In this document: positions 9,638 to 51,064 of the stretch, piece after piece
Layout of the letters: each line of letters opens with the position of its first letter
Position numbering within the stretch: the first letter of the stretch is position 1
From: Candidatus Doudnabacteria bacterium
GTDB lineage: Bacteria > Patescibacteriota > Doudnabacteria > UBA920
Length of the DNA stretch: 64,000 nt
Direction of reading: 5' to 3'
Assembly (NCBI GenBank): GCA_020850635.1
Contig: JADZEH010000032.1
Coordinates: 11,421 to 75,420, forward strand
Program-made: the position numbers and the translations under genes
Notes under the pieces: model-generated
Database searches by the model: none
Told to the model about the DNA's origin: nothing
Seen by the model: only the letters and a program-made list of their open reading frames with translations

Positions 9638-9735
9638 ACAAAAGCCCCCAGCTGGGGGCTTTTTACATTGACCAAACCATCAAAAATAGCTATAATACTA
9701 GCACATATTCCGCAAGTCGCGGTATTTTTTAATCC

Positions 9736-11199
9736 ATGGCCAACAACAACGTCATCTTAAGATTCTCCGATGTAAGCTTCGATTACGGACACGACAAACA
9801 AGTCCTCGATGAAGCTAGTTTCAGCGTGCACGCTGGTAGTCGTATCACCCTCATGGGTCAGAACGGTGCGGGTAAAAGCTCTCTGTTTAAAATGATCATG
9901 GGTGAGCTTCAGCCTAAAGAGGGAAGTATCAATCGTACGCCAAACGACATCTCTGTGGCCATCGCACATCAGGTTATGCCTAAAGACATGAACGGCTTAA
10001 CTGTTCGTGAATTCTTCGCTACGGCTTTCAAAGAAACTAAATATAATCTCGACAAACTCATCGCTGAAGTGTTGGAAGTTGTTCATCTTACTGTTGACCT
10101 TGAAAAGAAAATTAGTGATTTGTCTGGTGGTCAGCAAGCCCGCCTTTTGTTAGCTCACGCACTTATTCAAAACCCCGACATCTTGTTACTCGATGAGCCA
10201 ACTAACAATTTAGATCAGCAAGGCATCGAACACCTGACAGGGTTTCTCATGATGTACGAAAAAACTTGTATTGTCATTTCGCATGATGCCGATTTCCTTA
10301 ACGCTTTCTCAGACGGCGTGTTGTATCTCGACGTGTTCACTCACAAGATCGAGCAGTATCAAGGTAACTACTATGATGTAGTCGAACAGATTGAAGAACG
10401 TATTAAGCGTGAAAATTTGCAGAATGCTCGAATGCAAATGCAGATAAAAGAAAAGCGTTCACAAGCTGAAGTCTTTGCCCACAAAGGTGGGAAGCTTCGT
10501 GCTGTGGCGAAGCGCATGCGCGAGTCTGCGGAAGAAGCCGAAGAGAGTATTGTTAGTGTTCGTCAGGAAGACAAAGTCATTCGTGAGTTTACCATTCCGG
10601 CACAAGAGTTTGATATTCACTTCAATGGTAAAGTTGCTGAGTTTACATCTGTCACAGCTTTGAAGAATGGCAAACCAGAAACAAAAGATATTGCTGTAAC
10701 ACTGCGTAAAAATACCCACCTGTTAATTGCTGGTCCGAACGGCATTGGTAAGAGTACTTTGTTAGAACAGATTGCTAGCGGTAAAGGCGAAGGGTTTAAA
10801 TTGGAGAAAGATGTAAAGCTTGGCTATTACAAACAAGATTTTAGTAACTTTGATTATAATCAAACTGCGTACGATTGTTTACTTGAAGTTATGCAGATAA
10901 AAGATGAGCATACGCTTCGTTCTACAGCTGCAGGGTTTTTGTTAACAGGGAAGTTGCTCGCTAACAAAATCGAAGCGCTCTCAGAAGGTCAAAAAGGTCT
11001 ACTCGCGTTCTGTCGATTATTGTTGATGAAACCAGGCTTACTTATTCTCGATGAGCCAACTAACCATATTAATTTCCGACATTTGCCCATAATTGCTAAA
11101 GCGCTGGATGAATACCAAGGCGCGATGATAATGGTCTCGCACGTTCCCGACTTCGTCTCCCAGATACGCATAGATGAAGTCATAGACTTAGATGCTTAA
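9736..11199 (+). CDS. ABC-F family ATPase (two tandem ABC domains, no TMD), EttA/Uup-like translation factor
   Basis: 487 aa. Walker A GQNGAGKSS and signature LSGGQQ with Walker B LLLDEPTN in domain 1. Walker A GPNGIGKST, signature LSEGQKG and Walker B LILDEPTNH in domain 2. A charged inter-domain linker separates them. Confidence 0.85.
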   Translation: MANNNVILRFSDVSFDYGHDKQVLDEASFSVHAGSRITLMGQNGAGKSSLFKMIMGELQPKEGSINRTPNDISVAIAHQVMPKDMNGLTVREFFATAFKETKYNLDKLIAEVLEVVHLTVDLEKKISDLSGGQQARLLLAHALIQNPDILLLDEPTNNLDQQGIEHLTGFLMMYEKTCIVISHDADFLNAFSDGVLYLDVFTHKIEQYQGNYYDVVEQIEERIKRENLQNARMQMQIKEKRSQAEVFAHKGGKLRAVAKRMRESAEEAEESIVSVRQEDKVIREFTIPAQEFDIHFNGKVAEFTSVTALKNGKPETKDIAVTLRKNTHLLIAGPNGIGKSTLLEQIASGKGEGFKLEKDVKLGYYKQDFSNFDYNQTAYDCLLEVMQIKDEHTLRSTAAGFLLTGKLLANKIEALSEGQKGLLAFCRLLLMKPGLLILDEPTNHINFRHLPIIAKALDEYQGAMIMVSHVPDFVSQIRIDEVIDLDA

Positions 11200-11200
11200 A

Positions 11201-11226
11201 ACACCCTAAAGATAGGGTGTTTTTGT
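11201..11226 (+). terminator. intrinsic terminator after the ABC-F gene
   Basis: ACACCCTAAAGATAGGGTGT stem-loop followed by TTTTTG. Confidence 0.7.
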
Positions 11227-11231
11227 ATGTA

Positions 11232-11260
11232 TTGACAAAAAAGGAAAAATGTGATACAAT
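11232..11260 (+). promoter_or_regulatory. strong sigma70-type promoter with an extended -10
   Basis: TTGACA at 11232-11237, a 17-nt spacer, then TGaTACAAT with the -10 at 11255-11260. A structured leader of about 120 nt follows, with hairpins GGCTAGAAAA...TTTTCTAGCC and AAGCGCATAGCGCTT, then GGAGG and a GTG/TTG start. Confidence 0.6.
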
Positions 11261-11366
11261 ATATATTATTTTTTATGACTAGTTTGGCTAGAAAAGCATG
11301 GAAAAAGTTCTTTGTTTTTCTAGCCTTTAATTAGGCGAAAAGCGCATAGCGCTTTATTCTGGTGGA

Positions 11367-13211
11367 TTGGAGGATACTATCGTGAAGTACTTTCTCACGA
11401 TCGTAATCATGATCGCTTGTCTCAGAGTGGACGTTGTTGCTGAGCCGGCATGGCTCCTGTGGGGTGACCCTCAGAACGTTCAGTTCGACGAACAGCGGCA
11501 AGTCTATCTCAACGGCAACACTGCTGTTGAGACGTGGCGATTTCTCACCTCTGATCCAGAACTCCGCAAGGAGTTGCTGAAACCAGAGGAAGTTCCGGTA
11601 CAGAAGACGTTCGTGCTCGTGTTCAGGTGTCCGAAAGGACTCAAGCCCGAAGACTGTTACGCTGCGATCTTCGCGGGGACGCAGTCCAGAAAGAATCGGT
11701 TTGTCTTGATCAACGTCGAGCAAACCGCGAATTACGAACGACAGTATCGCGTATGGCCACACCTCGGCGTGCTCTACGTCGGGACCGCTGTTCATCAGCA
11801 GGGGTGGGACGTGGTACTGTGGGACGAACTCGTTCAAGGCCACGTTTCGCTTGAGGAGCTCGTAGAGCCGGGCGATATTGTCGGCCTGAGTCTCGTTGTC
11901 ACGGGAATCGAACGTGGTCTTGAGTTGGCGCGACAAGCGAAGAGTTTGGGCGCTCGATATGTGATCGCGGGTAACGACTCGGCGATCTTCAGATCGAACC
12001 AGATCCTTCGACTGCCGGGTAAGCCGATTGACGTGGTGTTCACTTCCAACAGTCTCACGGCCGTGCGCCGGTTCTTTCGTGCAATCGAGTACGGAGAAAT
12101 CGGCAGCGTCAGTATCTCTGACGTAGAGACTGAGCCAATTGCCGTCCAACGTTCGAACGAACGCCAGCAGTTGTATGTCGAGATTGGGCAGCGAAATGGG
12201 CAGAGACGAGACGGGACGTTCGATAACGACGACGTCTTCGTCGTTCCACAGTTCGATCTGTTTCCTGCGAGCTACTGGAATGAGGTTTGGTCGAACTACC
12301 GCGAGGTCTTCGGACACAAGCATTCCAATCCGGAAACCGTAAAAAACGCGATCGCCTTGTTCGCTCAAGGGTGTACTCGGACGAAAGGCAAGGATGCCTG
12401 TACCTACTGCAGTATTGCAGGGGTCGCAGACGTCCGCGTTCCTTCCGAGCAGTATCTTCGAGCGACGGTGGAAGCCTATCAACGTTTTGGCATTGATGCG
12501 GTGTTTAACACCACAGACTCTGCCTACGAAATGAAGAAGGTCGTCGATCAACTTCAGAACGTTGGGGCGCGCTTCAAGGCCCTGACTATCTACGGTCGGG
12601 CTCAGGGGATTACGGAGAAGCCGGAATTGTTGGACGAGTGGCAGAAGGTCGTCAACGATCGACTGCTCATAAACGTCGGTATGGACTCTGGCGATTCGGA
12701 GTCACTCCACGCTGGCATCATCAAGTCGTCACTCAAGACGGGATCGAGAGTCAGTGAGAATCATCTGGCGGTGCGGTATATCGCTGCAAGCGATGCTCAC
12801 CTCCATTACTCTCTGATATTCGGTTCTCCTGGAGAGACGACCGACTCGTGCGAACGAAGCATCGAGTTCTTGGAGTGGTCAACGGCTACGCTTAGGCAGC
12901 AGTTGGACTTGGTTGAGACGGACATCTTCTGGCTCAACTACGGTTCACCGGCAGCCCGCGTGTTCCATGACTACCGCTATGCCCAGGAGCTCGCTGCGCT
13001 AGCGAACAAGTCGATCTCTCGAGAAGAGTGGCGTTCTACCTTCGCTCAGTATGCTGAGGAACTCGTTGTTCCCCCGCAGGCTCAGGAAGGCTGGTTCCGA
13101 CACTTCACACGAATCGACATGGACACGGCGCAGAGCTACAACCGGCGCGCCGCCGAAATCATGGCTCGACACGAAGGAGGGATATCGGGCCGTGCATTCA
13201 AGCCCTCGTAA
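11367..13211 (+). CDS. putative cobalamin (B12)-binding domain / radical-SAM-like enzyme, high-GC foreign-looking gene
   Basis: About 610 aa. The N-terminal segment (VLINVEQTANYERQYRVWPHLGVLYVGTAVHQQGWDVVLWDE) resembles the B12-binding Rossmann module of B12-rSAM proteins. A Cys cluster CTRTKGKDACTYC follows, though it is non-canonical (Cx8Cx2C, not Cx3Cx2C). GC is about 55% against about 37% in the flanks. A GGAGG Shine-Dalgarno lies 8 nt before the in-frame GTG at about 11382. The function is tentative. Confidence 0.65.
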   Translation: MEDTIVKYFLTIVIMIACLRVDVVAEPAWLLWGDPQNVQFDEQRQVYLNGNTAVETWRFLTSDPELRKELLKPEEVPVQKTFVLVFRCPKGLKPEDCYAAIFAGTQSRKNRFVLINVEQTANYERQYRVWPHLGVLYVGTAVHQQGWDVVLWDELVQGHVSLEELVEPGDIVGLSLVVTGIERGLELARQAKSLGARYVIAGNDSAIFRSNQILRLPGKPIDVVFTSNSLTAVRRFFRAIEYGEIGSVSISDVETEPIAVQRSNERQQLYVEIGQRNGQRRDGTFDNDDVFVVPQFDLFPASYWNEVWSNYREVFGHKHSNPETVKNAIALFAQGCTRTKGKDACTYCSIAGVADVRVPSEQYLRATVEAYQRFGIDAVFNTTDSAYEMKKVVDQLQNVGARFKALTIYGRAQGITEKPELLDEWQKVVNDRLLINVGMDSGDSESLHAGIIKSSLKTGSRVSENHLAVRYIAASDAHLHYSLIFGSPGETTDSCERSIEFLEWSTATLRQQLDLVETDIFWLNYGSPAARVFHDYRYAQELAALANKSISREEWRSTFAQYAEELVVPPQAQEGWFRHFTRIDMDTAQSYNRRAAEIMARHEGGISGRAFKPS

Positions 13212-13247
13212 CGGGGGAGTCGAGCAACCGACTAGATAGTTTTGCTG

Positions 13248-13280
13248 AGGAACAAGTTGCTTTGTTCCTCCCTTTTTTTA
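13248..13280 (+). terminator. intrinsic terminator after the high-GC gene
   Basis: GAGGAACAAGTTGCTTTGTTCCTC hairpin plus CCTTTTTTTT. A second hairpin (ACACTAGCTTAAGGCTAGTGT + T7) lies at 13321-13347. Confidence 0.65.
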
Positions 13281-13363
13281 ACTGATAACTTGGTTGTCAT
13301 TTGAAATACGGGACTTAAAAACACTAGCTTAAGGCTAGTGTTTTTTTGTTGAAGATTTTTATT

Positions 13364-13606
13364 TCAGAAGTTTCGATAAGTCTTCTCAGAACGTAAACCT
13401 ACTTGCAGGACTAGTAGTTTATCGTCGTCAATTTTAAAAATTATTCTTAGTTTCCCATGACGTACTCGAAATACATTTTTCTGACCTTTTAGATGTACTA
13501 TGTCTAAGCCCGAATAGTTTCTCGCTAACAATCTAACAATAAGATAATCAAAAGCTGTCTTATATTCTTTTGGTAGTTTTGCGAGAGCTTTTTTTATCTT
13601 GTCCAT
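13364..13606 (-). CDS. type II toxin, RelE/ParE superfamily
   Basis: 80 aa. The pattern LAKLPKEYK..F...I..L......LKG...FRVRHGKLRIIFKIDDDKLLVLQVGLRSEKTY matches RelE/StbE-type mRNA interferases. It sits downstream of a Phd/YefM-like gene. Confidence 0.7.
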   Translation of the reverse strand: MDKIKKALAKLPKEYKTAFDYLIVRLLARNYSGLDIVHLKGQKNVFRVRHGKLRIIFKIDDDKLLVLQVGLRSEKTYRNF

Positions 13607-13823
13607 TTCGTAGAGCGTTAGCTATGTCTTCTACAGGAATACCATCTTTTTTGATTTCTGTAAAATCGATGATAGTTTTCCAGTTTAGTTCGTCGCTAAT
13701 AGGGGATATTCTAAACAATGGCTTAGATTTTTTGAGCACTATAAATGACTGACCAGAATTAACTTTTTTGGTCACAGCTTCAACGTTTTCTCTAAATTCT
13801 TTTAATCCAATGAGTTTTTCCAT
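13560..13823 (-). CDS. type II antitoxin, Phd/YefM family
   Basis: 87 aa. The N-terminus LKEFRENVEAVTKKVNSGQSFIVLKKSKPLFRISP is typical of Phd/YefM antitoxins. Its 3' end overlaps the toxin ORF by 47 nt. Confidence 0.7.
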   Translation of the reverse strand: MEKLIGLKEFRENVEAVTKKVNSGQSFIVLKKSKPLFRISPISDELNWKTIIDFTEIKKDGIPVEDIANALRNGQDKKSSRKTTKRI

Positions 13824-13972
13824 ATATGGTACTTAATTATTTTAAGTTTATCTTAAGATTAACTTAGTGTCAAGTTGTTATTTTATAAAGATTTTAGAAA
13901 ATCTTTAGAATTTCTTGATTTGTTGTGGATTAGTATGCTAGGGTATTAAGATTTAACAATTTATCGAAATAT

Positions 13973-16900
13973 ATGAAAAGGACTCAATACCTTGGTTTGC
14001 GCAGGTTAGTAGTTAGTTTCCTAGTATTTTTGGTTATTGTAATGCCTTTAAGGCCAGTATTCGCTCAGGAAGTGGAAGCATCTGTTCCTGTGACCACAGA
14101 ACCCGTTCAGCAAGAACCTCAGGCGATTAGTGAGCCTGAGCCAACTTCTATGGCAGATGAAACTCCTATCCCAACTGAGCAAGCAGACGAATTAGGCACA
14201 GATAAAACCGAGGCTCCTATTGGAGACGAAGATCCTGTGTCAGAAGAAGCTGTGGTTAAAGAAGATGAACCAAAGCCGGAAGAAGAAGTCGCTAAAATCT
14301 TTGGAGGTACCCAGGGTGTTGGATTACAATTTAAAATTCCTTCTGAACCTCAAAACTCTGTTGATGAATCAACGGGAGCTTTGATTTATGAGTATCCAAT
14401 AGTGATGCCAGAGGGTCGTTTAGGTATGACCCCAGCGGTGTCATTAAAATATAATTCTCAGAATATTACCAAGGTAGATTCGATCGTTGGATTAGGCTGG
14501 GAGCTGACTATTCCTTACATTCAACGTGAACGTGCTAAGGGAGTAGAAGGTATTTATACAAAAGCTAATTTCGTAACGTCTTTTTCGGGGAATCTTGTCC
14601 CCACAACAGATATTAGTTCTAGCCCGTACACCGTGTATTATTCTGAGGTTGACGATGGAAGCTTTCAAAAGCACACATTCAATTCTGATAATACATGGAC
14701 AATGACAGATAAATCTGGAAGGGTTTATACTTTTGGCGCCACAGCTGCCTCACGGCAGGATAACCCTGTTGATACTAGTCAGGTTTATAAGTGGATGATC
14801 TCCAAGATTAGTGATGTTCATGGTAATGAGATTCAGTATTCTTACACAAAGGACAATGGCCAAATTTATCCCAGTCAAATAGTCTATACATATCATTCCA
14901 CTTCACCAGCTATTCACAACGTCTCGTTTACTTATAATTCTCCAAGTAGTTACGGAGCCACTACATATAATGCGGCTTTCCCAGTTGTTACTAGTAAGGT
15001 TTTGGCTACGATTGATGTCACTACAACGGCTATTAATGGTGTTAGTACAAACAGTTATTCTTTGGTAAATACCAATGCCCAATTTATTAAGCAAAAATTA
15101 GTTACACGCATTGACAGAAGCTACACAAGTACTATCACCGAATCAGTTCCATATAGTGAATCTACTAGTTTTTCTTACTCAACTAAAACTCCAGGGTGGC
15201 AGCAAGGTACTCATTCCTTAGAAGGGTATTTAGTAAGAAATTCAGATTATATTTACAAAGATATTTTTACTGCTGATTTTGATGCCAATGGGTTTACTGA
15301 TGTGTTAATTTCTCATCACGATATTCCCAGTCAAAAATATAATAGATTGATGATGAACAATGGCTCAACTTTCACTGAGTCTAGCTCCGCATGGTCTTTG
15401 CCCACACACGATTTGAGTTCAAATGCATTTATTGCAGATATTAATGGAGATAAGTACCCAGATTTATTACCTAGGCAGTCTGATCCAAACCCTGTTTATT
15501 TAAATACAGGAAGTGGTTTTTCCGTTGATAATTCAAATAATTGGAAAATTTCGACATATGTGCCTGAGGCGCTTATTTGTGGTGCCAATGTCGGTGATTC
15601 AAATTCATTTGATACCAATTCTTTCTTACATGATATTAATGAAGATGGAAAAAACGACATCGTATTCTTTGGGGGAAGTTCCGACTTCAGGGTTTTTCTA
15701 AATAATGGAAACGGTTTTACTCTCTCAAATAACTACACCTTTACTCCACAATCAGGAGCTAATTTTACTATCCCCACGGTGTGTACCGGGGATTTAGATG
15801 CGGACGGCTATCAGACATTGATAGATGTCAATAACGACGGATTAAAAGATTACTTCCATGTAACCCATGGTACTTACTTAAATACTGGTTCTGGCTTTGC
15901 TTACGCAGCATCTTACCAGATTGATACCGCGGAGATGGATCGGACTGGTTTGGGGGATGTGAATGGTGACGGATTATTAGATTATATAGGTTTTAAATGG
16001 ACAAGCGGGGGAAATTATTGCGCTCGCTTGTTATTTAATGATGGAAATGGTTTTAAACAAATCAACCCCACAAACTATCCAACAAATTGCGACAATTCCG
16101 GTGTTTGGGATTTTTCAAATCTTAGCTACACCGGGGGAAATTCCAGTTTTTTCGGTACTTTAATGGATCTCACCGCGGACGGTTTACCAGATATCGTTGG
16201 TAGATTCTCTTCTTATGATATAAGGGGAAAAGTAAGGGCTGTTAATGACGGGGTGAGTTCCTGGGTTAATAATTCAAATGCTGGAGATCAATGGGTTGAT
16301 GTTATAGCGCCCTCTTATGGAAAATATTTTGATATTAACTCTGATGGAGTATTGGATTTTATTACACCATTAACTAGTTGGGGTTATGGTACTATGCCTG
16401 CCTCGATGACGTATATGGGTAAGCCAAGTATCCCAAACAGACTTACTCAGATTACCAATAGACTTGGAGCTCAGACAGTTGTCGATTTTGATACTGCCCC
16501 CACAGATCTTTATGATCGAGATAGTGCGCCAATGCCTGTAGTAAAGAAAATTACGACTCAGAATCTTGGTAGTGGGCAACCTGATATGGTAACCCAGTAT
16601 GATTATGAAAAAGGTCATTACTCTACCAATCCACTTACTAGCCAAGTAAAATTTGCGGGATTCAGCAAAGTTACCGCCACTGAATCCGGAATTGATTTAA
16701 CACCTCTTCGTGTTACAGATACATATTTTCATCAAGGTGACAATTCTGATTCTGGAAATAGCGAATATCAAGATCACATCTCAAAAATTGGTAAAGCTTA
16801 CAGAATTGAGATAAAAGATGGAAGCGGAAATCTATATTCTAAAACCCTGAATACATGGGAGCATGATCAAATATATGAGGGTCGTGATTTTGTTAAGCTT

Positions 16901-19900
16901 GCTCAAACAATGGAATTTAGTTTTGATGGTAATACAAATCACAGAGATAAAGCTGTGAGTTATGAATATGATAACTTTCTTGGAAATACTACTAAGCGGA
17001 TAGATTGGGGTGAGGTTACTGGTTCAGCGGATGGGACGTTTACTGATGTAGGTAACGACAAAATAGTTACTGATTTAATATATGCCACTGGTAGTTCCCA
17101 CGACGTAGTAGAGATGATTTCCTCCGAAATATCTACCGACCAGTCTCTAAACAAAGTAAGCGAGACTCATTATTACTATGATAATTTGTCTCTAGGTTCG
17201 ATTGATAAAGGAAATGAAACAAAAGTAGAAAAGTGGAAATCTGGCTCTGATTATATTAACGAACAGAAGGCATATAACTCTCTTGGATTAGTAACGCAAA
17301 CAACTGATCCAAGAGGAAAGAATTTAGTTTATGCATATGATAGTCATAACCTGTTTCCAGCAACGGTTACAAATCATTTAAGTCAGGCAACGCAGTATCA
17401 ATACCATTATTTCTTTGGTAAGCCACTTCAAGTGACCGATGTAAATAACAGGGTATTTAAAACGCTTTATGATGGCGCGGGTCGTATAATTGAGCAAAGA
17501 GAGCCAGATTTAAGCAACCCTACAGCGTTGGTTTCTAAATTTGTAAACACTTATTCAACTTTTGCAGGTGGAGAATTGACACGTCATGTTGAGTACATGA
17601 GTGCTTCTGAATACATAGATTCGTATACTTACTCTGATGCCTTGGGACGTGAAGTTCAGCAACGACTAGCTACCGAAGATAGTGGTAACTATAGAGTAAA
17701 CGATAAAGCTTATGATGCGTTGGGACGTCTGCAAAAAGAGTCATCGCAGTATTTTTCATCCGGAGATGCTAAGACTGTAGCGACAACGACAACTAATCTT
17801 TACACAACCACCTCATATGATCCTCTTGATCGCGTTACTGCAATTGCCAATAATATTGGGATCATAACCAACACTTTCGATGATTGGACTACCACAGTAA
17901 CAGATGCAAGGGGTAAGGTTAAGGTTTTGTACAACGATGCTCGCGGTAATTTAGTTAAAGTTGATGAAAGTAATTCAGGTGCTGTATATACTACTAATTA
18001 CGAATACAATTCAAATAATAATCTTGTTAAAATCACAGATGCTTTGGGTAACGTCCGTAACTTTACCTATGATGCCTTAGGACGTCGTTTAACTGCTCAG
18101 GATTTACATGCCCCGACTGATGTTACTTTTGGTACTTGGACCTACACTTATGATAACAACGGTAATATTACGTCTGTTGTCGATCCTAATAATCAAACCA
18201 TTAATTATACCTACGACGATTTAGGTCGCCTACTTACAGAAGATTTTACTGGTCAGTCGGAAACAGAACTAACTTATACTTATGATTCAGGTACGGATGG
18301 TATGGGTCGGTTGTCTTCTGTAGTTTCTCCCGGAGCTAATACTAGTTACTTATACAACGCACATGGTGGCGTTAAGCAGGAGATAAAAACCATAAATTCC
18401 ACTTCGTATCAGACAGACTATACTTATGATCGTCAGGGAAATCAGCTAGAGATTACTAACCCAGATGGGTCGAAAGTTAAGTATACCTATAATTTCGGAG
18501 GACAACTGGAAACGGTGCAACGTAAAGAAACTACAGATACTTCATTTATAAATGTTGTAAATGATTTTGATTATGGTCCTCATGGAAAAATCACCCTTCA
18601 AGTAAACCAAAATGGTTCTCAAACCAGCAACATTTATGACGCTACTAAGCTTTATCGGCTATCCTCTAAAATAACTACTATTAGTGGCGGTTCTAAGGTG
18701 CAAGGACTTACATATAGTTATGATAATAATAGTAATATTACTCAGGCCGTAGATAATTCAAATACTAATTCAGTAAAAACTGTTGCATATACCTATGATG
18801 ATTTAAACCGGTTACTTAGTTCAACAGCAACAGGGGTTGCTGCTGGTCAGTCGACTTATACCGAAGTTTATAGTTACGATGCTATTGGAAACATTCTGAC
18901 TAAAGCTACTACCGTTGGGGGAGGGGCTACGATAAATACCACGTATTCTTATGCAGGAAGTGCAGGGTCAAGTTATGCAAATCCTCACGCAGTTACTAGT
19001 ATTTCCGATGGAATAAATACTACCAACTTTACGTATGACAATAATGGTAATATGATTGGAGAAGGAAGTAAGACCTTTGCGTTTGATTATAATAATCGTA
19101 TGACGCAGTCAGTTGGCGTAAGTGGTAGTGGTCCGACAACCGTTAGTTTTAATTCTCTAGCTGGCGATGGTGCTATTTATCATCAAAGTTCTTCTTGGGA
19201 TACCGCTCACGATGCTTCGGTGGGTTCGTATGCGTCGTTTACTGTTAATAATTTTTACGTTAGAGCTGGTAAGAATACAAGCACTTCAAATCGTATTGAG
19301 CGTGGGTTCTTACCTTTCGACACATCTTCGTTGCCAGACAGTGCAAATATTACGAGCGCAAAACTTAAAGTCTATGTTTATTCTAAATTGAATAATGATA
19401 ATGACGGTACAGATTGGGTAACTGTGACTCAAGCCACTCAACCCAGTACAACCGTTCTAACAACAGGGGACTACGATTTAGCAGGAAGTATAAATAATCC
19501 GGTTGAAGGGGTTGATGCAGGGCAGCGTAAAGATATTACCAATGTAAGTGTAGGTGGTTACTTAACCTTTGATCTAAATGTAACCGGCCGAGGTTGGGTA
19601 AACACCAGTGGTTCGACAAAGCTTAGTTTGCGTGAAGGCCATGACGCTACAGATAGCGCTTTTGTGGGAACTTCTGGTCAGTATAACGAGCTACGTATTA
19701 TATCATCAGAATATACGGGAACCAGCGTTGATCCAATTTTGGAAGTTACTTATGGCAGTGCCCCTCAGGTCGTTACAACAAATTATAAGTATGATCACAC
19801 TGGCCAGAGAGTTAGCTTATCCAATGGTACGAAAACGGATGTTTATCCGTCAGCTGACTACAATACGGACGGAACGACACCTGTAAAGCACATTTTTGGT

Positions 19901-20911
19901 GCTGGTCAGACCGTAGCTACAATAAAGGGTTCTGGTGTTGGCGCCACTGCGTACTTAGTTCACACTGATCACCTCACTGGGTCTAGTGCTGTAACTAACA
20001 GCGGCGGTACGCTTGAAGAATTGATGGATTACTTCCCATTTGGGAATATTCGTCTCGACCAAAAAGTAGGAAGTTTTGATGAACAGCGTAAATACACGGG
20101 GCATGAGTATGACGTGGATACCGGACTTTCCTATATGGAAGCGAGGTATTATAATCCAAATATCGGAAGATTCCTTAGCCAAGATCCGGTCTTTCTTGCT
20201 TTGGGAAATGAAGAGGGAGTACAACAGAAAACCCAACAAGAATTACAAGAAATATTATCTGATCCTCAGTTATTGAATAGTTATTCTTACGCACGAAATA
20301 ATCCGTTAGCCTACATTGACGAAAACGGAGAGTGGCCATCTTGGAGTCAAATCAAAACTGGCTTCCAGACAGCATGGAATGTAGCCAAGCCGTTTGTACA
20401 GAACAAGATCAACCAAGTACAAAACTCTTGGAACTCATACAATGCTTATATGGACACTCCCGAGGCGCAGCAGAAGTCTCGAGATGCAGCAATGGGTGGT
20501 ATGGCTTACCTTGGACCTATTGGCGGAACTGATAGATACTTTGGATTCGGAGTAGGAAGTATTAATTCTGTAGGTAGTGGCGTGAACCTAACGTCCAGAG
20601 GAGCACTCCATATACAGAAGGGTCATACTTTATCTGGCCAAGCGCCGGGTAATAATAAAAGTTACTTCTTTAATGATGTTGATTATAAAGGTATAATAAC
20701 TAAGTATGGCAATCAAGCTAAGGGTGCAATTCAGGGCAATGGCAATGTGCAAAGAATTCTTGATATGGGCCGTCCAGTAGGATGGGATGCTACTACCGGT
20801 GGAGCAACTTCATTTATGACTATTATTACCGATAAAGCAGGTACTGTAATTACAAGCCATCCTGGCTTACCAACAACAATCAAAGCTATAGTTAAAACCA
20901 TTAAAAAGTAG
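13973..20911 (+). CDS. RHS/YD-repeat polymorphic toxin (TcB/TcC-like), 2312 aa, secreted
   Basis: Signal peptide, then an acidic Pro/Glu-rich linker. An SpvB-like N-domain follows (YEYPIVMPEGRLGMTPAVSLKYNSQ). Several FG-GAP/VCBS-like Asp-rich repeats come next (DINGDKYPDLL, DINEDGKNDIVF, DLDADGY..DVNNDGLKDY, DVNGDGLLDY). A long YD-repeat shell contains many YxYDxxGRL units (YTYDDLGRLL, YDALGRL, YTYDDLNRLL). A non-YD domain of about 170 aa is inserted at about aa 1640-1800 (...YNELRIISSEY..., DNRLRE-like). The RHS core is YTGHEYDVDTGLSYMEARYYNPNIGRFLSQDPV...YSYARNNPLAYIDENGE. A C-terminal extension of about 190 aa, Cys-free, is of unknown family. Confidence 0.9.
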   Translation: MKRTQYLGLRRLVVSFLVFLVIVMPLRPVFAQEVEASVPVTTEPVQQEPQAISEPEPTSMADETPIPTEQADELGTDKTEAPIGDEDPVSEEAVVKEDEPKPEEEVAKIFGGTQGVGLQFKIPSEPQNSVDESTGALIYEYPIVMPEGRLGMTPAVSLKYNSQNITKVDSIVGLGWELTIPYIQRERAKGVEGIYTKANFVTSFSGNLVPTTDISSSPYTVYYSEVDDGSFQKHTFNSDNTWTMTDKSGRVYTFGATAASRQDNPVDTSQVYKWMISKISDVHGNEIQYSYTKDNGQIYPSQIVYTYHSTSPAIHNVSFTYNSPSSYGATTYNAAFPVVTSKVLATIDVTTTAINGVSTNSYSLVNTNAQFIKQKLVTRIDRSYTSTITESVPYSESTSFSYSTKTPGWQQGTHSLEGYLVRNSDYIYKDIFTADFDANGFTDVLISHHDIPSQKYNRLMMNNGSTFTESSSAWSLPTHDLSSNAFIADINGDKYPDLLPRQSDPNPVYLNTGSGFSVDNSNNWKISTYVPEALICGANVGDSNSFDTNSFLHDINEDGKNDIVFFGGSSDFRVFLNNGNGFTLSNNYTFTPQSGANFTIPTVCTGDLDADGYQTLIDVNNDGLKDYFHVTHGTYLNTGSGFAYAASYQIDTAEMDRTGLGDVNGDGLLDYIGFKWTSGGNYCARLLFNDGNGFKQINPTNYPTNCDNSGVWDFSNLSYTGGNSSFFGTLMDLTADGLPDIVGRFSSYDIRGKVRAVNDGVSSWVNNSNAGDQWVDVIAPSYGKYFDINSDGVLDFITPLTSWGYGTMPASMTYMGKPSIPNRLTQITNRLGAQTVVDFDTAPTDLYDRDSAPMPVVKKITTQNLGSGQPDMVTQYDYEKGHYSTNPLTSQVKFAGFSKVTATESGIDLTPLRVTDTYFHQGDNSDSGNSEYQDHISKIGKAYRIEIKDGSGNLYSKTLNTWEHDQIYEGRDFVKLAQTMEFSFDGNTNHRDKAVSYEYDNFLGNTTKRIDWGEVTGSADGTFTDVGNDKIVTDLIYATGSSHDVVEMISSEISTDQSLNKVSETHYYYDNLSLGSIDKGNETKVEKWKSGSDYINEQKAYNSLGLVTQTTDPRGKNLVYAYDSHNLFPATVTNHLSQATQYQYHYFFGKPLQVTDVNNRVFKTLYDGAGRIIEQREPDLSNPTALVSKFVNTYSTFAGGELTRHVEYMSASEYIDSYTYSDALGREVQQRLATEDSGNYRVNDKAYDALGRLQKESSQYFSSGDAKTVATTTTNLYTTTSYDPLDRVTAIANNIGIITNTFDDWTTTVTDARGKVKVLYNDARGNLVKVDESNSGAVYTTNYEYNSNNNLVKITDALGNVRNFTYDALGRRLTAQDLHAPTDVTFGTWTYTYDNNGNITSVVDPNNQTINYTYDDLGRLLTEDFTGQSETELTYTYDSGTDGMGRLSSVVSPGANTSYLYNAHGGVKQEIKTINSTSYQTDYTYDRQGNQLEITNPDGSKVKYTYNFGGQLETVQRKETTDTSFINVVNDFDYGPHGKITLQVNQNGSQTSNIYDATKLYRLSSKITTISGGSKVQGLTYSYDNNSNITQAVDNSNTNSVKTVAYTYDDLNRLLSSTATGVAAGQSTYTEVYSYDAIGNILTKATTVGGGATINTTYSYAGSAGSSYANPHAVTSISDGINTTNFTYDNNGNMIGEGSKTFAFDYNNRMTQSVGVSGSGPTTVSFNSLAGDGAIYHQSSSWDTAHDASVGSYASFTVNNFYVRAGKNTSTSNRIERGFLPFDTSSLPDSANITSAKLKVYVYSKLNNDNDGTDWVTVTQATQPSTTVLTTGDYDLAGSINNPVEGVDAGQRKDITNVSVGGYLTFDLNVTGRGWVNTSGSTKLSLREGHDATDSAFVGTSGQYNELRIISSEYTGTSVDPILEVTYGSAPQVVTTNYKYDHTGQRVSLSNGTKTDVYPSADYNTDGTTPVKHIFGAGQTVATIKGSGVGATAYLVHTDHLTGSSAVTNSGGTLEELMDYFPFGNIRLDQKVGSFDEQRKYTGHEYDVDTGLSYMEARYYNPNIGRFLSQDPVFLALGNEEGVQQKTQQELQEILSDPQLLNSYSYARNNPLAYIDENGEWPSWSQIKTGFQTAWNVAKPFVQNKINQVQNSWNSYNAYMDTPEAQQKSRDAAMGGMAYLGPIGGTDRYFGFGVGSINSVGSGVNLTSRGALHIQKGHTLSGQAPGNNKSYFFNDVDYKGIITKYGNQAKGAIQGNGNVQRILDMGRPVGWDATTGGATSFMTIITDKAGTVITSHPGLPTTIKAIVKTIKK

Positions 20912-21681: not shown

Positions 21682-21715
21682 AAAAACAGCTATCGTGATG
21701 TAATAGCTGTTTTTA
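21682..21715. terminator. bidirectional intrinsic terminator / left edge of the recombinase element
   Basis: AAAAACAGCTAT-CGTGATGTA-ATAGCTGTTTTT hairpin with A and T runs on both sides. It lies between the convergent barstar-like and recombinase genes. Confidence 0.55.
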
Positions 21716-23410
21716 ATTTGATTTTTTGCGGCCCATCCATTTATTCCCTCGTTTTATTTTACCTTCAATTTTGAATTGAATTGCGCTAGCATCAGATGTC
21801 TGATCGGGATCGTCGTATGCTTTTAGTTTTATTGGGATTGAGCCAATTACTTTCACTTCAGTGTTGTTATAAATTACTTCTTTAATGTAATCTTTTAAAA
21901 ATTCACGAGTCTTGTCGCTGTTGTTACAAAGATTTAATCTTGATCTTACTGATTCGCAATATCTTTTTATACTAGCTTCTATAACTTCTTCTTTATGAAG
22001 ACTAGGCACCTGATTAAGCAGCTTTGCTTTATTGACATTGTGATTAGTAAGTTCACTATCATAGCTTAAGCACCTTTTTACATATTCGGCTCTATTAATT
22101 TTACCGCTGGCATATTGATCAATTGTTTGTTTTCTTTTAGTAGCAAGATCAGCTATTCGCTTTCCATTCTCTTTCAGCTTAGATTCAATTTGTTTTCGGT
22201 TTTTCAATTGACCTACATTAGTAGTTAGGCATAACTCTAGTTTGCTCGAGTCAGTCATGCTTTCTTCGATCATATTCATTACGCAAGTGTCTAGTAGCTG
22301 AGTTAGTACCTCGGGATTGTTGCATCTCACCAACCCAGTATTCGCAGTTTGTGAATGCATTCGTTGTAAAGAAATTTGGCTACATCTGTAAGCAGTCTTA
22401 TGAAATATTTTATTTGGATCCGCAACTCTGCGCTTGTCTTTATAAGTCCGGAAGTATGAGGTGAAAAATCTACCACATATTCCGCAGTTAACTAAACCTG
22501 AAAGTAACTGTGTTTGCTTCGGGTTTCTATACTGTTCGCTGTTATATTTAATTCTTGCTTGTACCTTATTAAAAAGTTCCTGCGAGATGATCGCAGGAAC
22601 TTTCACTGGTATCCATTCAGATTTATTTTTGTAAACCTTCTTGCCGTACTTCAGTCCTCTTAGGGGACTATTTGGCTCTTTCACATAAGATCTCGTATTA
22701 TAGTATTTAATTCCGGTATAAGTGTGGTTTTGCAAAATGTTTTTTAGTTTAGAGGTATCCCAAAGTTTTCGACCCATCTTAGTAATAGCACCAATATTTT
22801 CCAGAGTTCGCACTAATTTTGCCCAACTAAATCCAGCAGCGTAGCTTTTGAAAATATATCTAACTGTTTTCGCTTCCTTTTCATTGATTATAAATTTACC
22901 TGGCTGAGTGTCGGTTCTGCGAATATATTCATACCCTAAAGCATTGTAACCGTAGTTTAATGGGATGCCTTGCCGTAGCTTGTGTAGCTTTCCTCGCTGG
23001 CTGCGTTCAATAATTTTAGCTCTTTCTAATTCTGATACTGCACCAAGTACTGTTAAGGTAAACTTGTTCTCAGGGTTATGGATGTAATCTTTGCCATTAA
23101 TTATTATTTGCTTTTTGTATTTGAGTATTTCCGCGATAATTAAGTTTTGGTAAGTAACATCTCTGGCTATGCGATCTGAATTTAAGAAGTAGATAGTATC
23201 AAACAGGGGAGTCTTAAGATCACTGCGTAGCTGATCAAGTGCAGGTCTGTCGATCTTGGCTCCACTATACCCATCGTCAATGTATTCTTTCGTTAACACA
23301 TCGCCACTTTTAGAAACTTGCTTTTTAAGTTCCTCAATTTGGCTTTCAATGGTTCGCTCTTTTTCTTGCAGAGCTGTACTTACTCTGGCATAGATCGCTG
23401 CTTTCTTCAT
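21713..23410 (-). CDS. large serine recombinase (resolvase/invertase catalytic domain + recombinase domain + zinc ribbon)
   Basis: 565 aa. The N-terminus MKKAAIYARVSTALQ carries the catalytic Ser. A long recombinase domain and a Cys-rich ribbon (CGICGRFF...C) follow. It overlaps the upstream paralogue by 4 nt (ATGA). Confidence 0.85.
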   Translation of the reverse strand: MKKAAIYARVSTALQEKERTIESQIEELKKQVSKSGDVLTKEYIDDGYSGAKIDRPALDQLRSDLKTPLFDTIYFLNSDRIARDVTYQNLIIAEILKYKKQIIINGKDYIHNPENKFTLTVLGAVSELERAKIIERSQRGKLHKLRQGIPLNYGYNALGYEYIRRTDTQPGKFIINEKEAKTVRYIFKSYAAGFSWAKLVRTLENIGAITKMGRKLWDTSKLKNILQNHTYTGIKYYNTRSYVKEPNSPLRGLKYGKKVYKNKSEWIPVKVPAIISQELFNKVQARIKYNSEQYRNPKQTQLLSGLVNCGICGRFFTSYFRTYKDKRRVADPNKIFHKTAYRCSQISLQRMHSQTANTGLVRCNNPEVLTQLLDTCVMNMIEESMTDSSKLELCLTTNVGQLKNRKQIESKLKENGKRIADLATKRKQTIDQYASGKINRAEYVKRCLSYDSELTNHNVNKAKLLNQVPSLHKEEVIEASIKRYCESVRSRLNLCNNSDKTREFLKDYIKEVIYNNTEVKVIGSIPIKLKAYDDPDQTSDASAIQFKIEGKIKRGNKWMGRKKSN

Positions 23411-25119
23411 AATTTTTCAATTACTAATTTCCCATATTCCTTCTTTGGAATTTCTTTGCCGTTAATGGTTTGATCATCTGTATTTAATTGCTTCACTCTA
23501 TTCAGTGCTTCTATTCGGTTGATTACTTGTTCAATCTTGAATTCAATTGGAACTGTTTCATCTTTTGAGACTTCAATCGCAATAGCACCTATCAGTTTGA
23601 TTTTGTCATCGGATTTGCCGTTTTTGCGGTATTCCACCTTGGCGATGTAGTCCAGTAAGAATTGTCGTTTAGAATTAAAATCTCCACATCTAGTAAATTG
23701 AGACTTTAAAGTTTTACAGTATTGTTCAGTACTCGCTTTGATAACTTCCGGTTTTTGAAATAGAGGTAGATATTTTAATAATTCAGCTCGCTTAGTTTGC
23801 AGGTTGCCAACTTCTTCATCATAGATAGAGATTCTCTTAACATATTCTTCTCGTTCCAAATCCCCAAAAGAGTAGAGATCAATTATCCGTTCTTTTTGTT
23901 TGCTAACTGTTTTGATTTTACTCTCCACATCTTTAATCTGTTTATCTAGTTTAGATTGATTCTTTTGATTATTGCCTAAGCTAATATAATTTCGGAGCTC
24001 ATTAGGTTTAAGTAATATACTCGTGACCATTTCAACTACCGTTGAATCTAGTACCCTGGTATCAATCTCAGGGTTATGGTTTATGCCTTTAGTTCTGCAT
24101 CGGTATACCGCTTTTTGATATAGCTTAATTCCAGACTTTCTTTCGACTTTGTAATACCTTCGATAGGCGAAGCATCTCAGTTTGCATTTACCGCAGAACA
24201 CTAGATTAGATAGTAGCTGGGTTCGCTGTGCATTTCTAAAACATTCATAGTTATATTTCATCCTTGCTTGCACTTGGTCAAATAATTTCTTTGGTACAAT
24301 TTGCGGTATTTTTATTCCAACCCATTCCGAGCGGTCTCTGTGGATTTTCTTGCCGCGCTTAGTTCTGCGGATTACATTTCCAACCGCATTCGTATCCGTC
24401 ATGGTATTGAAATACTTTGTGCCTGTATAGGTCTCGTTTTGTAGAATGTATTTTAGATGCCCATCACCAAGTTTGTTTCTTTGCTCTTTGGCTAGACCCT
24501 TCGTTTTTAGCTGTCTCGCTAATTCTTTCAGTCCAATATTTCCTTTTGCATACGTTTCAAAAATATACCTTACTATTTTTGCCTCGTGTTCGTTGATTGC
24601 ATAAGAGGGGGAAGAGTCTGTTGTTCTTGGCGTGTATATATAACCATAAATATGACAACCGTTGCTTAACAGATATCCTTGTTTTAATCTGTGCTGCGAT
24701 CCGCGCCTTGTTCTCTCTAACGTTTTAGCTCGCTCCAATTCTGATACCGCACCTAATACCGTGAGTGTGAATTTGTTTTCTGGGTTATTTACATAATCCT
24801 TCCCATTGATAATGATCTGCTTTTTGTAATGCAGAAATTCGCTGATAATAATATTCTGGTAAGTTACATCTCTGGCAATGCGATCAGCATTCAAAATGTA
24901 GATAGTCTGAAATCCCAGAGTTCTAATATCTCTCCTCAGGTCATTCATAGCTGGTCTATCCAGCAAGCATCCGCTGAATCCATCGTCGATGTATTTTTTT
25001 ACCAAAACATCCCCAGAAGCTCTAATTTGCCTTTTAAGCTCCGATATTTGGCTTTCTATAGTTCGCTCCTTCTGCTGGGCATCGGAGCTTACTCTTGCAT
25101 AAAATACTGCTCTTTTCAT
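23407..25119 (-). CDS. large serine recombinase (paralogue of the downstream gene)
   Basis: 570 aa with N-terminus MKRAVFYARVSSDAQ. It is about 60-65% identical to the 21713-23410 product over the first 150 aa (…IARDVTYQN.II.E.L.YKKQIIINGKDY.NPENKFTLTVLGAVSELERAK…). This is a tandem pair reminiscent of CcrA/CcrB-type two-recombinase elements. Confidence 0.85.
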   Translation of the reverse strand: MKRAVFYARVSSDAQQKERTIESQISELKRQIRASGDVLVKKYIDDGFSGCLLDRPAMNDLRRDIRTLGFQTIYILNADRIARDVTYQNIIISEFLHYKKQIIINGKDYVNNPENKFTLTVLGAVSELERAKTLERTRRGSQHRLKQGYLLSNGCHIYGYIYTPRTTDSSPSYAINEHEAKIVRYIFETYAKGNIGLKELARQLKTKGLAKEQRNKLGDGHLKYILQNETYTGTKYFNTMTDTNAVGNVIRRTKRGKKIHRDRSEWVGIKIPQIVPKKLFDQVQARMKYNYECFRNAQRTQLLSNLVFCGKCKLRCFAYRRYYKVERKSGIKLYQKAVYRCRTKGINHNPEIDTRVLDSTVVEMVTSILLKPNELRNYISLGNNQKNQSKLDKQIKDVESKIKTVSKQKERIIDLYSFGDLEREEYVKRISIYDEEVGNLQTKRAELLKYLPLFQKPEVIKASTEQYCKTLKSQFTRCGDFNSKRQFLLDYIAKVEYRKNGKSDDKIKLIGAIAIEVSKDETVPIEFKIEQVINRIEALNRVKQLNTDDQTINGKEIPKKEYGKLVIEKL

Positions 25120-25388
25120 ACCAACATTGATGACGCAGCTTCTTGATCTAGTCTAGGCCAGCTGTTGGTAACTTTCGACTTTACTTTAACTCCAACCCAA
25201 GCTAGGATGGACTGGATTATGCGCCCTAAATATCGTATAATTGCATTAACAACTTAATGCCTAACCCCTCAGGAATGAGGATATGGCGCTAAAACCTATC
25301 ACAGATACTGAACCCTCCGTTCAGCTACTGTGATAGGTCGTATCTGGAAACAGGTACGGGACCGCAAGGTCCATGCTGGCGGGGGGCT

Positions 25389-25997: not shown

Positions 25998-26560
25998 ATT
26001 GCATCTTCTTCCGTTTCTAGGCCACCAGACTCTAAATAACCTTTAACTGGTTTATCTGAGTATCTATCTTCATCATCTACATAATCAGGGTGAGTTGTAT
26101 CGTACCTATGAACTACCGCATTTGCAGCTCTAGTGAATAAATCAAAGACATTATCAATTTGCTCTTTAACTTCTTCTGTAACCTCTGGATGTTTGGCCTG
26201 TACCTTGAATTCATTAATCACAGTCCTGCGATCAGAAAATTTTGGATCACGACTCTTAAGCCAAAATATGGCAGCCGTCATATTGCCTTTACTCATTTCC
26301 TCAATGAGTTTTGATTGAGCAAGTTCATTAATAACCATAGAACCTTCACGGACTGCTTCTGTCGCAACTCTATCAAACTCAGCATCTTCCTCGCACCAGC
26401 GATAGTATGTAGACCTAGCTATGCCAACTTTCTTCACTGCTACTTGCACCACAGGCATCTTTAAAAGCACTTCTACTAATTGAAGTTTTTGTTCAGCGAT
26501 ACGCTTGGCAATCTTTTCTAGTTCCTTTTTATTCTTTGGAGTTTTGCTGGTCTTTACCAT
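25994..26560 (-). CDS. HTH DNA-binding protein, possibly a phage terminase small-subunit-like regulator
   Basis: 188 aa with the helix-turn-helix segment VGIARSTYYRWCEED and a charged N-terminus. Its context next to a phage-type methyltransferase suggests phage origin. Confidence 0.45.
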   Translation of the reverse strand: MVKTSKTPKNKKELEKIAKRIAEQKLQLVEVLLKMPVVQVAVKKVGIARSTYYRWCEEDAEFDRVATEAVREGSMVINELAQSKLIEEMSKGNMTAAIFWLKSRDPKFSDRRTVINEFKVQAKHPEVTEEVKEQIDNVFDLFTRAANAVVHRYDTTHPDYVDDEDRYSDKPVKGYLESGGLETEEDAI

Positions 26561-33585: not shown

Positions 33586-33586
33586 T

Positions 33587-33916
33587 ATGATTAAGTTTGA
33601 TCAATATACTTGGTTAGTTATAATTGAAGCTATCGATTCATGTTCAGAAGCTGATCCTGAGTTAATTGAAAAAGAAACTGGTTTTCAGTTACAACAATTT
33701 GAAGACTTTAAAGAAAAATACGTAAATTCTATTCAAAAGAGCATGAATCAAGATGATTTACCAATAGTAGTAGCAGCTTTAGAATGGATGTTGGTGACCA
33801 AGAATGATTCGGACATATTACAGATTCATAAGGAAGATGGATTACGTCTTCTTGAATTACTAAGTCAGAAAAGGGGTGAAATAAGAGAAGCGGCATGGTC
33901 ATTGCATTCTGTATAG
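33587..33916 (+). CDS. putative immunity protein for the orphan RHS toxin
   Basis: An ATG sits 1 nt after the orphan toxin stop, preceded by GGAAGGAG. It encodes about 109 acidic residues. The track gives a longer 33527 start that overlaps the toxin. Confidence 0.5.
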   Translation: MIKFDQYTWLVIIEAIDSCSEADPELIEKETGFQLQQFEDFKEKYVNSIQKSMNQDDLPIVVAALEWMLVTKNDSDILQIHKEDGLRLLELLSQKRGEIREAAWSLHSV

Positions 33917-50898: not shown

Positions 50899-51064
50899 AA
50901 TTACAGCATAACAAAAAACAATAATTGAAGCTAACGGCTTTAATGCCTAGACAAAATCAATTATTCTCGGTATACTGCTATATTCATCTTGAAGCTTGGC
51001 ATGTGCTTATGCAAAAAGATGTCCTGACCAGAGGAGCTGGATTTCGGATCAACGGAGGAGAGCT

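Follow-up and report, generated by a model that had tools for sequence, protein, structure and literature searches.

Gene-confined GC-richness as a family trait: a predicted B12-domain radical SAM gene in a strain-variable cassette of a Candidatus Doudnabacteria genome

Abrupt changes of base composition at the two ends of an open reading frame (ORF) are usually read as the mark of recent transfer or of ORF replacement. One such ORF, located at 11382-13211 in a 64-kb stretch of a Candidatus Doudnabacteria metagenome-assembled genome (MAG), raises the question of where a GC-rich (guanine plus cytosine) gene with such sharp edges comes from, and whether these edges are the places where it was joined to its surroundings. 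The whole stretch, referred to as the window, covers positions 11,421-75,420 of the 77-kb contig JADZEH010000032.1 (GCA_020850635.1) and has a GC content of about 40%. The ORF is recorded at NCBI as MCC7356742.1 (locus tag IT410_04005) and annotated 'hypothetical protein'; its product is predicted to be a radical S-adenosylmethionine (SAM) enzyme. An initial annotation, made from the letters alone, had proposed either a precise ORF replacement or a recently captured cassette. The reading considered likely here is that a class-B-type radical SAM gene was gained horizontally in a cassette shared with a toxin-antitoxin (TA) pair, and that its GC-richness is a trait of its gene family; the true breakpoints lie elsewhere than at the composition steps. 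The gene is given as follows:

11382-13211, + strand: radical SAM gene, 609 aa, GTG start at 11382, stop at 13211; GC 0.552, GC at third codon positions (GC3) 0.652

The discontinuity which had been described at the ORF ends is confirmed when it is computed. In a plot of 100-nt windows, GC rises from 0.27-0.30 (11200-11349) to 0.56 (11400-11499) on the left side and falls from 0.57 (13150-13249) to 0.34 (13250-13349) on the right side. A maximum-likelihood fit with two change-points places the GC-rich block at 11414-13232, with GC of 0.40 to its left, 0.557 inside and 0.35 to its right. The support intervals of two log-likelihood units (2-lnL; start 11334-11447, end 13217-13274) together bracket the GTG start and the stop codon, the change-points lying within about 50 nt of these codons. 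Among all stretches of 1830 nt in the 64 kb, this one is the richest in GC, at 0.556 compared with a mean of 0.400 (standard deviation 0.035) and a runner-up of 0.474. The GC3 of the ORF contrasts with about 0.33 in the neighbouring genes (z = 6.1, rank 1 of 12), and the three codon positions have GC values (GC1, GC2, GC3) of 0.60, 0.40 and 0.65. Moreover, the tetranucleotide signature of the gene is foreign to the rest of the window. TCGA, ACGT and GATC occur at 3.0, 2.6 and 2.15 times expectation in the ORF versus 0.82, 0.55 and 0.86 elsewhere, and the palindrome CGATCG reaches 5.7 times expectation versus 0.35 in the rest of the window, where all four palindromes are avoided or neutral.

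The composition jump itself is the only observation which speaks for an assembly chimera or misjoin, an outcome that the initial annotation had named as a possible refutation. Contigs available in Logan from three other sequencing runs (SRR13225479, DRR783843 and SRR34753046) are colinear with the window over both junctions at 99.2-99.95% identity, without gaps in the first two runs and with one gap opening in the contig of SRR34753046. These independently assembled contigs correspond to 11192-17391 (locus L038, 99.18%), 9671-13658 (L039, 99.95%) and 12590-14013 (L065, 99.2%) of the window. As three independent assemblies agree across the junctions, the locus is therefore not a chimera, and a misjoin retains a next to negligible probability.

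The borders of the variable DNA become visible in a comparison with loci encoding an ABC-F protein at least 90% identical to that of the window (L040, L066-L070), in which the breakpoints were taken from blastn. The features between the ABC-F gene and the gene of an RHS toxin are given below:

11198-11223, + strand: intrinsic terminator of the ABC-F gene (terminator scan), an 11-bp perfect inverted repeat
11226-13879, no strand assigned: strain-variable segment of about 2.65 kb filling the ABC-F/RHS slot, with the radical SAM unit and a ParE/Phd pair
11232-11260, + strand: sigma-70-like promoter, TTGACA-17-TACAAT with extended -10 TG, 11 of 12 consensus positions; predicted by consensus match only
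11267-11381, + strand: AT-rich 5' leader of about 115 nt, with hairpin 1 at 11286-11325 and hairpin 2 at 11339-11355
13247-13270, + strand: intrinsic terminator of the radical SAM gene, a 10-bp stem followed by CCTTTTTTT
13317-13345, no strand assigned: second, bidirectional hairpin consisting of an A-run, a 12-bp perfect stem and a T-run (inverted repeat I9; found by folding)
13364-13823, - strand: type II TA pair with a ParE-like toxin (13364-13606) and an antitoxin of Phd/YefM type (13560-13823); GC 0.33, GC3 0.26

In the relatives, the gene order Wzy-DsbB-DsbA-M23 peptidase-DUF3276-ABC-F...RHS is kept. Homology to the window ends at the stop or terminator of ABC-F, at 11201 in L066 and L068 and at 11224-11227 in L040, L069 and L070, and restarts at 13880, 93 nt ahead of the RHS start. 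The ABC-F terminator is thus the last sequence in common and marks the left edge of the slot. Neither a radical SAM homologue nor the TA pair is present at the L066-L070 and L040 loci, with which both flanks are shared. The slot contains 379 nt in L066-L068, three unrelated genes in L070, and the radical SAM gene with the TA pair in the window; strains having these three different cargos are 88-90% identical at the nucleotide level in ABC-F, which makes the slot hypervariable. The sites compared are 11226-13879 in the window, 9467-9845 in L066 and 1611-3398 in L070, where the cargo includes an XRE-type helix-turn-helix protein. Given the homology breaks at 11201-11227 and 13880, the promoter, leader, ORF, terminators and TA pair therefore vary together. 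By sequence comparison, the radical SAM unit and the ParE/Phd pair form a 2.65-kb strain-specific segment, within which the gene is predicted to be a self-contained transcription unit having its own promoter, leader and terminator.

The capture of a cassette, one of the two options raised at first, is hence borne out by relatives with the same flanks but without the segment. The AT-rich promoter, leader and terminators had been regarded as native; all of them, including the promoter at 11232-11260, fall inside the variable segment (11201/11227-13880), together with the equally AT-rich TA pair. The GC values of the parts are 0.32 for promoter and leader, 0.55 for the ORF, 0.375 for the terminators and 0.33 for the TA pair. 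The other option, preferred by the initial annotation, was a precise ORF replacement behind the native promoter and leader, with which the coincidence of the GC change-points with the ORF ends and the host-like AT-richness of the non-coding parts agree. It is very improbable, as the breakpoints are not at codon boundaries, every flank-sharing relative lacks the promoter, leader and terminators, and the same GC steps are found at the ORF ends throughout the family, as described below.

Gain of the cassette is supported because relatives have the site empty, the closest known homologues leave a wide gap in identity, another Doudnabacteria MAG has a copy from a different clade, and the tetranucleotides are foreign. 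Among 5.8 billion proteins, no homologue of the window protein was found between 61% and 99% identity. The copy of the other Doudnabacteria MAG (L030) is 43% identical to that of the window and belongs to a different deep clade, with the limits that the taxonomic labels are those of the submitters and that ancient paralogy is possible. The segment would have come by horizontal transfer from another lineage of the Candidate Phyla Radiation (CPR). Differential loss, in which the radical SAM gene and the TA pair are ancestral and the relatives have lost or replaced them, is in agreement with the lack of insertion scars at the borders and with three cargos in about equally distant strains, a fast turnover that does not by itself fix the direction. 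This alternative is distinctly unlikely, considering that no orthologue above 61% identity comes from the well-sampled relatives, represented by 13 contigs of up to 472 kb, that the copy in the other Doudnabacteria is from another clade, and that other CPR lineages hold the gene in quite different, housekeeping contexts.

The gained segment resembles TA-stabilised, strain-variable islets in its presence/absence polymorphism at one site between conserved flanks, in the type II TA pair within the insert, in the deviant composition of a gene and in its accessory context, here adjoining an RHS toxin locus. It differs in that integrase, transposase and attachment (att) repeats are lacking at its borders, and in that just the enzyme ORF deviates in composition rather than the whole insert. 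No flanking direct or inverted repeats were found at the segment borders, and the hallmarks of mobility (integrase, direct repeats, tRNA target) are missing; the nearest recombinase genes (21713-25119) lie past the RHS gene. The TA pair, recognised by PF05016 (E 5e-5) and PF02604 (E 1.2e-3), is convergent to the radical SAM gene and has a promoter-like site at 13873-13845 in a promoter scan. The hairpin at 13317-13345 probably serves also as the terminator of this convergent operon.

The second question is whether the GC steps are a consequence of this gain. The family was sampled at 37 loci from as many species, obtained by a pattern-limited scan of 185,579 species representatives; comparison of GC3 was restricted to the 32 loci with enough flanking genes, and leader folding and averaging of the GC step were performed on 22 homologous loci. 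The GC of the homologues exceeds that of their flanks by 0.074 on average over the 37 loci, and by more than 0.05 in 30 of them. GC3 amounts to 0.566 in the radical SAM genes versus 0.436 in the flanking genes (paired Wilcoxon p = 6e-8), GC1+2 is also raised by 0.039, and the gene has the top GC3 in 19 of the 32 neighbourhoods. Its GC3 follows that of the host as 0.56 x host GC3 + 0.32. The genes directly adjoining it are host-like, the family-average profile has its rise at the start codon and its fall at the stop codon, and the excess is even along the gene. An excess of GC limited to the ORF characterises this gene family in most carrier genomes. With GC-richness present family-wide, the sharp GC steps therefore travel with the gene and are not recombination junctions, as which the initial annotation had regarded them; the averaged profile of the 22 loci has the same steps.

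The trait is also seen where the gene has apparently been inherited together with its neighbours. Around the radical SAM gene, four loci (L004, L011, L033 and L034) have the dcw cluster, lysS, greA and two further genes in common, with a flank identity of 47-53% matching a radical SAM identity of 41-54%; three others (L001, L020 and L023) share parAB, topA and dprA. The GC excess persists at syntenic copies whose flank divergence matches that of the gene. Additionally, a divergent partner gene of the TrmB type, present at seven loci and at L071, has a GC3 lower by 0.08-0.22 than that of the radical SAM gene, and it does not exceed the other flanking genes in GC3 at 5 of 6 measurable loci. In the window, the TA pair of the cassette has a GC3 of 0.26.

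These data bear directly on an alternative explanation of the island, namely the un-ameliorated composition of a recent donor of about 55-58% GC, with no force specific to the family. Under the Muto-Osawa relations, codon-position values of 0.60/0.40/0.65, as found in the ORF, fit a genome of about 56% GC. Furthermore, the enrichment extends to G-ending, C-ending and NCG codons alike, the tetranucleotide usage is foreign, the site is strain-variable, and at least three other GC-rich single-gene islands occur in the window, including a desaturase whose nearest non-CPR relatives are of Acidobacteria type. A donor of this kind is nevertheless unlikely. The TA pair and the non-coding DNA of the same segment have only 21-37% GC, and no donor above 61% identity exists among the 5.8 billion proteins. 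The closest homologues (57-61%; L071, L072, L001, L003 and L006) form GC-rich islands of their own, their hosts being lower in GC, the closest two having GC3 of 0.70 versus about 0.50 (L071) and 0.48 versus about 0.30 (L072). The excess is also found at syntenic, apparently vertical copies and beside host-like TrmB partners.

Codon adaptation would explain a family-wide trait without any donor, if the family were highly expressed and GC-ending codons were preferred in translation. The largest pooled shifts are indeed towards C-ending codons of Phe, Ile, Tyr and Asn (TTC 0.69 versus 0.37, ATC 0.54 versus 0.33), the amino acids on which measures of selected codon bias are classically based, reportedly including that of Sharp and co-workers in 2005. 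The window copy, moreover, is preceded by a near-consensus promoter and a Shine-Dalgarno GGAGG. But Lys, Glu and Gln codons ending in G are more frequent as well, as are NCG codons, and GC1 and GC2 are raised. An Akashi-type test gave odds ratios of 1.15-1.19 (z about 1.6) and a null result for other codon classes, and the ribosomal-protein genes S4 and S13 at L010 are raised by 0.03 in GC3 compared with 0.17 for the radical SAM gene. By these codon shifts, the Akashi-type test and the ribosomal genes of L010, translational selection is weakly supported as the main cause, and codon adaptation is rated improbable.

Two further sources of the excess were considered and rejected. Mixing by transfer among the carriers predicts a mean GC of the gene equal to the mean of the hosts, which is not seen. 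An embedded element is at odds with an excess that is uniform along the gene and with the absence of any strongly over-represented hexamer. Transfer surely contributes to the family pattern, given the patchy occurrence of the gene. Candidates for the cause of the family GC include a conversion or mutation bias specific to this gene, selection acting on GC content in the mRNA or DNA, and an unsampled GC-rich reservoir. It may be, and this is put forward only as a tentative proposal, that a lasting, gene-specific pressure keeps all codon positions, above all the synonymous sites, rich in GC and CpG across Patescibacteria, whatever the GC of the host or the co-inheritance of neighbours; its cause might be a hot spot of recombination or of biased gene conversion, or else selection for properties of the mRNA or DNA, and the enzyme would be a new, possibly cobalamin-independent radical SAM protein of class-B type with a CPR-specific substrate.

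A single gene standing 13 GC3 points above its genome across deep divergence presents a problem for genome evolution. If the family trait is real, a 'GC island' can be a heritable property of one gene rather than the mark of a foreign origin, and composition-based calls of horizontal gene transfer in CPR genomes could be misled by a gene-borne GC step. Of all the results, this gene-confined, lasting GC-richness over a whole bacterial radiation most deserves further study.

The family is found in 37 of the 185,579 species representatives covered by the pattern-limited scan. It comprises more than 220 full-length homologues at 50-60% identity, and every one of them that is named by organism is from Patescibacteria, with carriers in Microgenomates, Parcubacteria, Berkelbacteria, Uhrbacteria and others. 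The window copy clusters with copies of Parcubacteria and Zambryskiibacteria at 57-60% identity. Beyond the family, scores fall from more than 690 bits to about 140 bits for the next relatives in a search of 1.84 billion representatives. These relatives have about 500 aa, lack the N-terminal 105 residues, carry Cx6Cx2C or Cx8Cx2C at the same place and match the models of BchE, HpnJ and methylases of ribosomally synthesised and post-translationally modified peptides (RiPPs) weakly. One MAG, H10.111, has two paralogues (L007 and L035) which are 60% identical and both strongly GC-rich.

The product of the gene is an uncharacterised protein whose class is less uncertain than initially thought. Its parts are as follows:

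11382-11696, + strand: N-terminal extension of about 105 aa, made up of a hydrophobic helix at the N-terminus and a small alpha/beta domain (alignment and secondary structure of the model)
11697-12116, + strand: Rossmann-type 'B12-binding-like' domain, about residues 106-245 (Pfam PF02310 and fold match)
12340-12911, + strand: radical SAM barrel core, about residues 320-510
12372-12410, + strand: Cx8Cx2C motif with C331 (12372-12374), C340 (12399-12401) and C343 (12408-12410), from 30 homologues

An AlphaFold2 model built on 30 homologues is confident, with a predicted local distance difference test (pLDDT) score of 85.9. Its fold is clearly, as far as a predicted model goes, that of a B12-domain radical SAM enzyme. 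The matches cover both domains of TsrM, TokK, CysS, MgmA and AprD4, with the fusion of a Rossmann and a radical SAM domain and a partial or full TIM-barrel. The Rossmann domain resembles the cobalamin domains of TsrM, TokK and MetH, and also that of the cobalamin-free AprD4. On the level of sequence the assignments are weaker. PF02310 matches residues 129-219 (E 1.5e-5) with 25.2 bits against a cut-off of 32.1, and PF04055 matches residues 334-502 (E 6e-4) with 20.4 bits against a gathering threshold of 29.5; some homologues carry a precomputed PF04055 match. NCBIfam models of B12-type radical SAM enzymes give 12-24 bits (best 23.7) against cut-offs of 251-650, and by these cut-offs the protein belongs to none of BchE, HpnR, HpnJ, PhpK, the ladderane-lipid radical SAM enzymes, AprD4 and the RiPP C-methyltransferases. 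No solved structure was found by sequence with the single protein or the family profile; fold comparison alone succeeded. The N-terminal extension has no Pfam match and is specific to the family, being absent in one subfamily and in the distant relatives of about 500 aa: some homologues align only from residue 103-106 or so on, and the distant relatives from about profile position 105. According to the model, the ORF is an intact gene for an uncharacterised enzyme of class-B (B12-domain) radical SAM architecture in three parts.

The cysteine spacing, which the initial annotation had rightly noted as non-canonical, is invariant. The sequence AQGCTRTxGxxxCxYC occurs in 30 of 30 homologues and gives Cx8Cx2C instead of the canonical CX3CX2C. 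C490 is the single invariant Cys besides the motif, with no sign of an auxiliary cluster, and the family has GNDS or GNDA where the relatives have GNDH or GDDH. By analogy with the superfamily, the three motif cysteines are presumed ligands of a SAM-binding [4Fe-4S] cluster, which would cleave SAM reductively to a 5'-deoxyadenosyl radical that would attack the substrate. The Rossmann domain would either bind a cobalamin that serves methyl transfer, like the domains of TsrM and TokK, or just shape the substrate site, like that of AprD4. CPR organisms are in general not known to synthesise cobalamin, and the family is therefore a candidate for new chemistry or for a cobalamin-independent use of the class-B scaffold.

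Among the known systems, AprD4 (6FD2), a radical SAM 1,2-diol dehydratase, is the best structural match at 15% identity, and the NCBIfam AprD4 model scores the window protein at 11.7 bits against a cut-off of 500 bits. AprD4 retains a B12-like domain but is reported not to use cobalamin. It acts inside an aminoglycoside biosynthesis gene cluster, whereas the radical SAM gene of the window stands alone. The class B methylases TsrM (6WTE), TokK (7KDX), CysS (9N1B) and MgmA (9CCB) share just 13-16% sequence identity with the window protein; they have CX3CX2C, while the window protein has Cx8Cx2C and the additional N-terminal domain. Expanded cluster motifs from CX4 to CX11CX2C, including CX8CX2C, are documented in the radical SAM superfamily (PMC9477430). 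As in the present family, the expanded-motif megaclusters of RadicalSAM.org have a long loop between the first and second Cys and retain the CX2C end (PMC9477430). The CX8CX2C groups listed there fall in Megacluster-4-6 and not in the B12-domain Megacluster-2-1 (PMC9477430). Overall, the family represents a well-conserved, wholly uncharacterised clade of B12-domain radical SAM proteins with an invariant Cx8Cx2C and a private N-terminal domain.

Several points weigh against the likely reading as given at the outset. The GC trait is not universal, since the clade of L004, L013, L014 and L015 has host-like GC3. The patchy occurrence of the family agrees with frequent transfer, and such transfer may have a share in the GC pattern. 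The enzyme assignment rests on a predicted fold, with both Pfam domains below their gathering thresholds. Regarding the cassette, its borders are free of integrase genes, att sites and terminal repeats, no donor lineage was found for it, and gain is the probable rather than the proven direction; with three states of the slot, the relatives may instead have lost or replaced it.

Upstream of the gene, the strong promoter (TTGACA-17-TGnTACAAT) and the structured leader are present as first described. The leader folds with -39.9 kcal/mol (z = -4.1) into two hairpins, with an inverted repeat (I2) detected there, and a Shine-Dalgarno GGAGG at 11369-11373 precedes the GTG start. The suspicion of a riboswitch was not supported. 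An Rfam scan of the leader gave nothing at the gathering threshold, the sub-threshold matches at E up to 10 being far under the gathering scores, and the structure is not conserved in the family, as the upstream 120 nt fold with z near 0 in 19 of the 22 homologous loci. A riboswitch or known leader RNA is rejected on these two grounds. The sole alignable leaders are identical and provide no sites for covariation. A small upstream ORF of 19 codons (11275-11334, + strand; MTSLARKAWKKFFVFLAFN and a stop) overlaps hairpin 1, has no obvious Shine-Dalgarno sequence and is not conserved elsewhere; it may be a leader peptide or attenuator. Downstream, the two terminators described at first are present at 13247-13270 and 13317-13345.

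One more feature overlaps the gene itself:

11331-12551, - strand: antisense ORF of 406 aa in the codon-aligned antisense frame; artefact

Stops in this frame arise solely from sense TTA, CTA and TCA codons, of which the radical SAM gene has 5, confined to its last third. The stop-free run measures 440 codons as observed and 242 +/- 65 codons after synonymous shuffling; in the homologues the runs are mostly 100-250 codons, and the ORF is not conserved. The suspicion of a composition artefact was justified, and a gene is ruled out.

When the flanks of 38 loci were compared all against all, no general operon partner emerged. The most frequent neighbour is a TrmB-type regulator, counted within 1 kb at 8 of about 40 loci; EamA was counted at 2, a TA pair at 2, a desaturase at 1 and CMAS at 1. 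The TrmB-family regulator (L025, L026, L031, L032, L037, L015, L018 and L071) is in most cases divergent, at about -150 nt, and is found with the greatest regularity in the subfamily without the N-terminal domain. At L005 (Microgenomates), a convergent ParE/RelE-like toxin with its antitoxin (11911-12463, - strand) is located 75 nt past the radical SAM stop; this toxin is 30% identical to that of the window, and adjacency of the radical SAM gene to a TA pair thus amounts to 2 of about 40 loci. A transporter of the EamA/DMT type adjoins the gene at L007 (8987-9841, - strand, GC3 0.53) and at L012 (11943-12794, - strand, GC3 0.65), and at L009 a desaturase 700 nt downstream is likewise GC3-rich. 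A RiPP precursor is rejected, there being no conserved small ORF beside the gene across the loci. PADLOC defence models matched neither the radical SAM protein nor the TA proteins, by which a defence system is rejected, and a phage origin is rejected as no homologue was found in IMG/VR viral contigs.

The window contains further GC-rich islands and mobile DNA. A gene at 34058-34855 (- strand; GC 0.53, GC3 0.62) codes for a delta-9-type fatty-acid desaturase of the membrane that matches PF00487 and has histidine boxes, for which the next-best homologue has 71% identity, followed by Acidobacteria-type desaturases at about 50-55%. Another islet at 36056-36781 (- strand, GC3 0.53) encodes a secreted protein of 241 aa without a Pfam match, and a third (GC3 0.67) consists of a small membrane protein (50996-51334, + strand) beside a 155-aa hypothetical protein (51401-51868, + strand). 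A LOOT RNA (RF03000, 83.6 bits) at 25258-25372 (+ strand) adjoins two genes for large serine recombinases (21713-25119) and a gene in which ParB is fused to a DNA methylase (26529-27893), a region which looks like an integrated mobile element. The RHS/YD-repeat toxin next to the slot (13973-20911, + strand) has 2312 aa, and small immunity-like ORFs come after it; at 32764-33916 (+ strand) there is another C-terminal fragment of an RHS gene, again with a small ORF of its own downstream. Compared with its relatives, the body of the RHS gene is 68-71% identical, and its first 213 nt are 89% identical.

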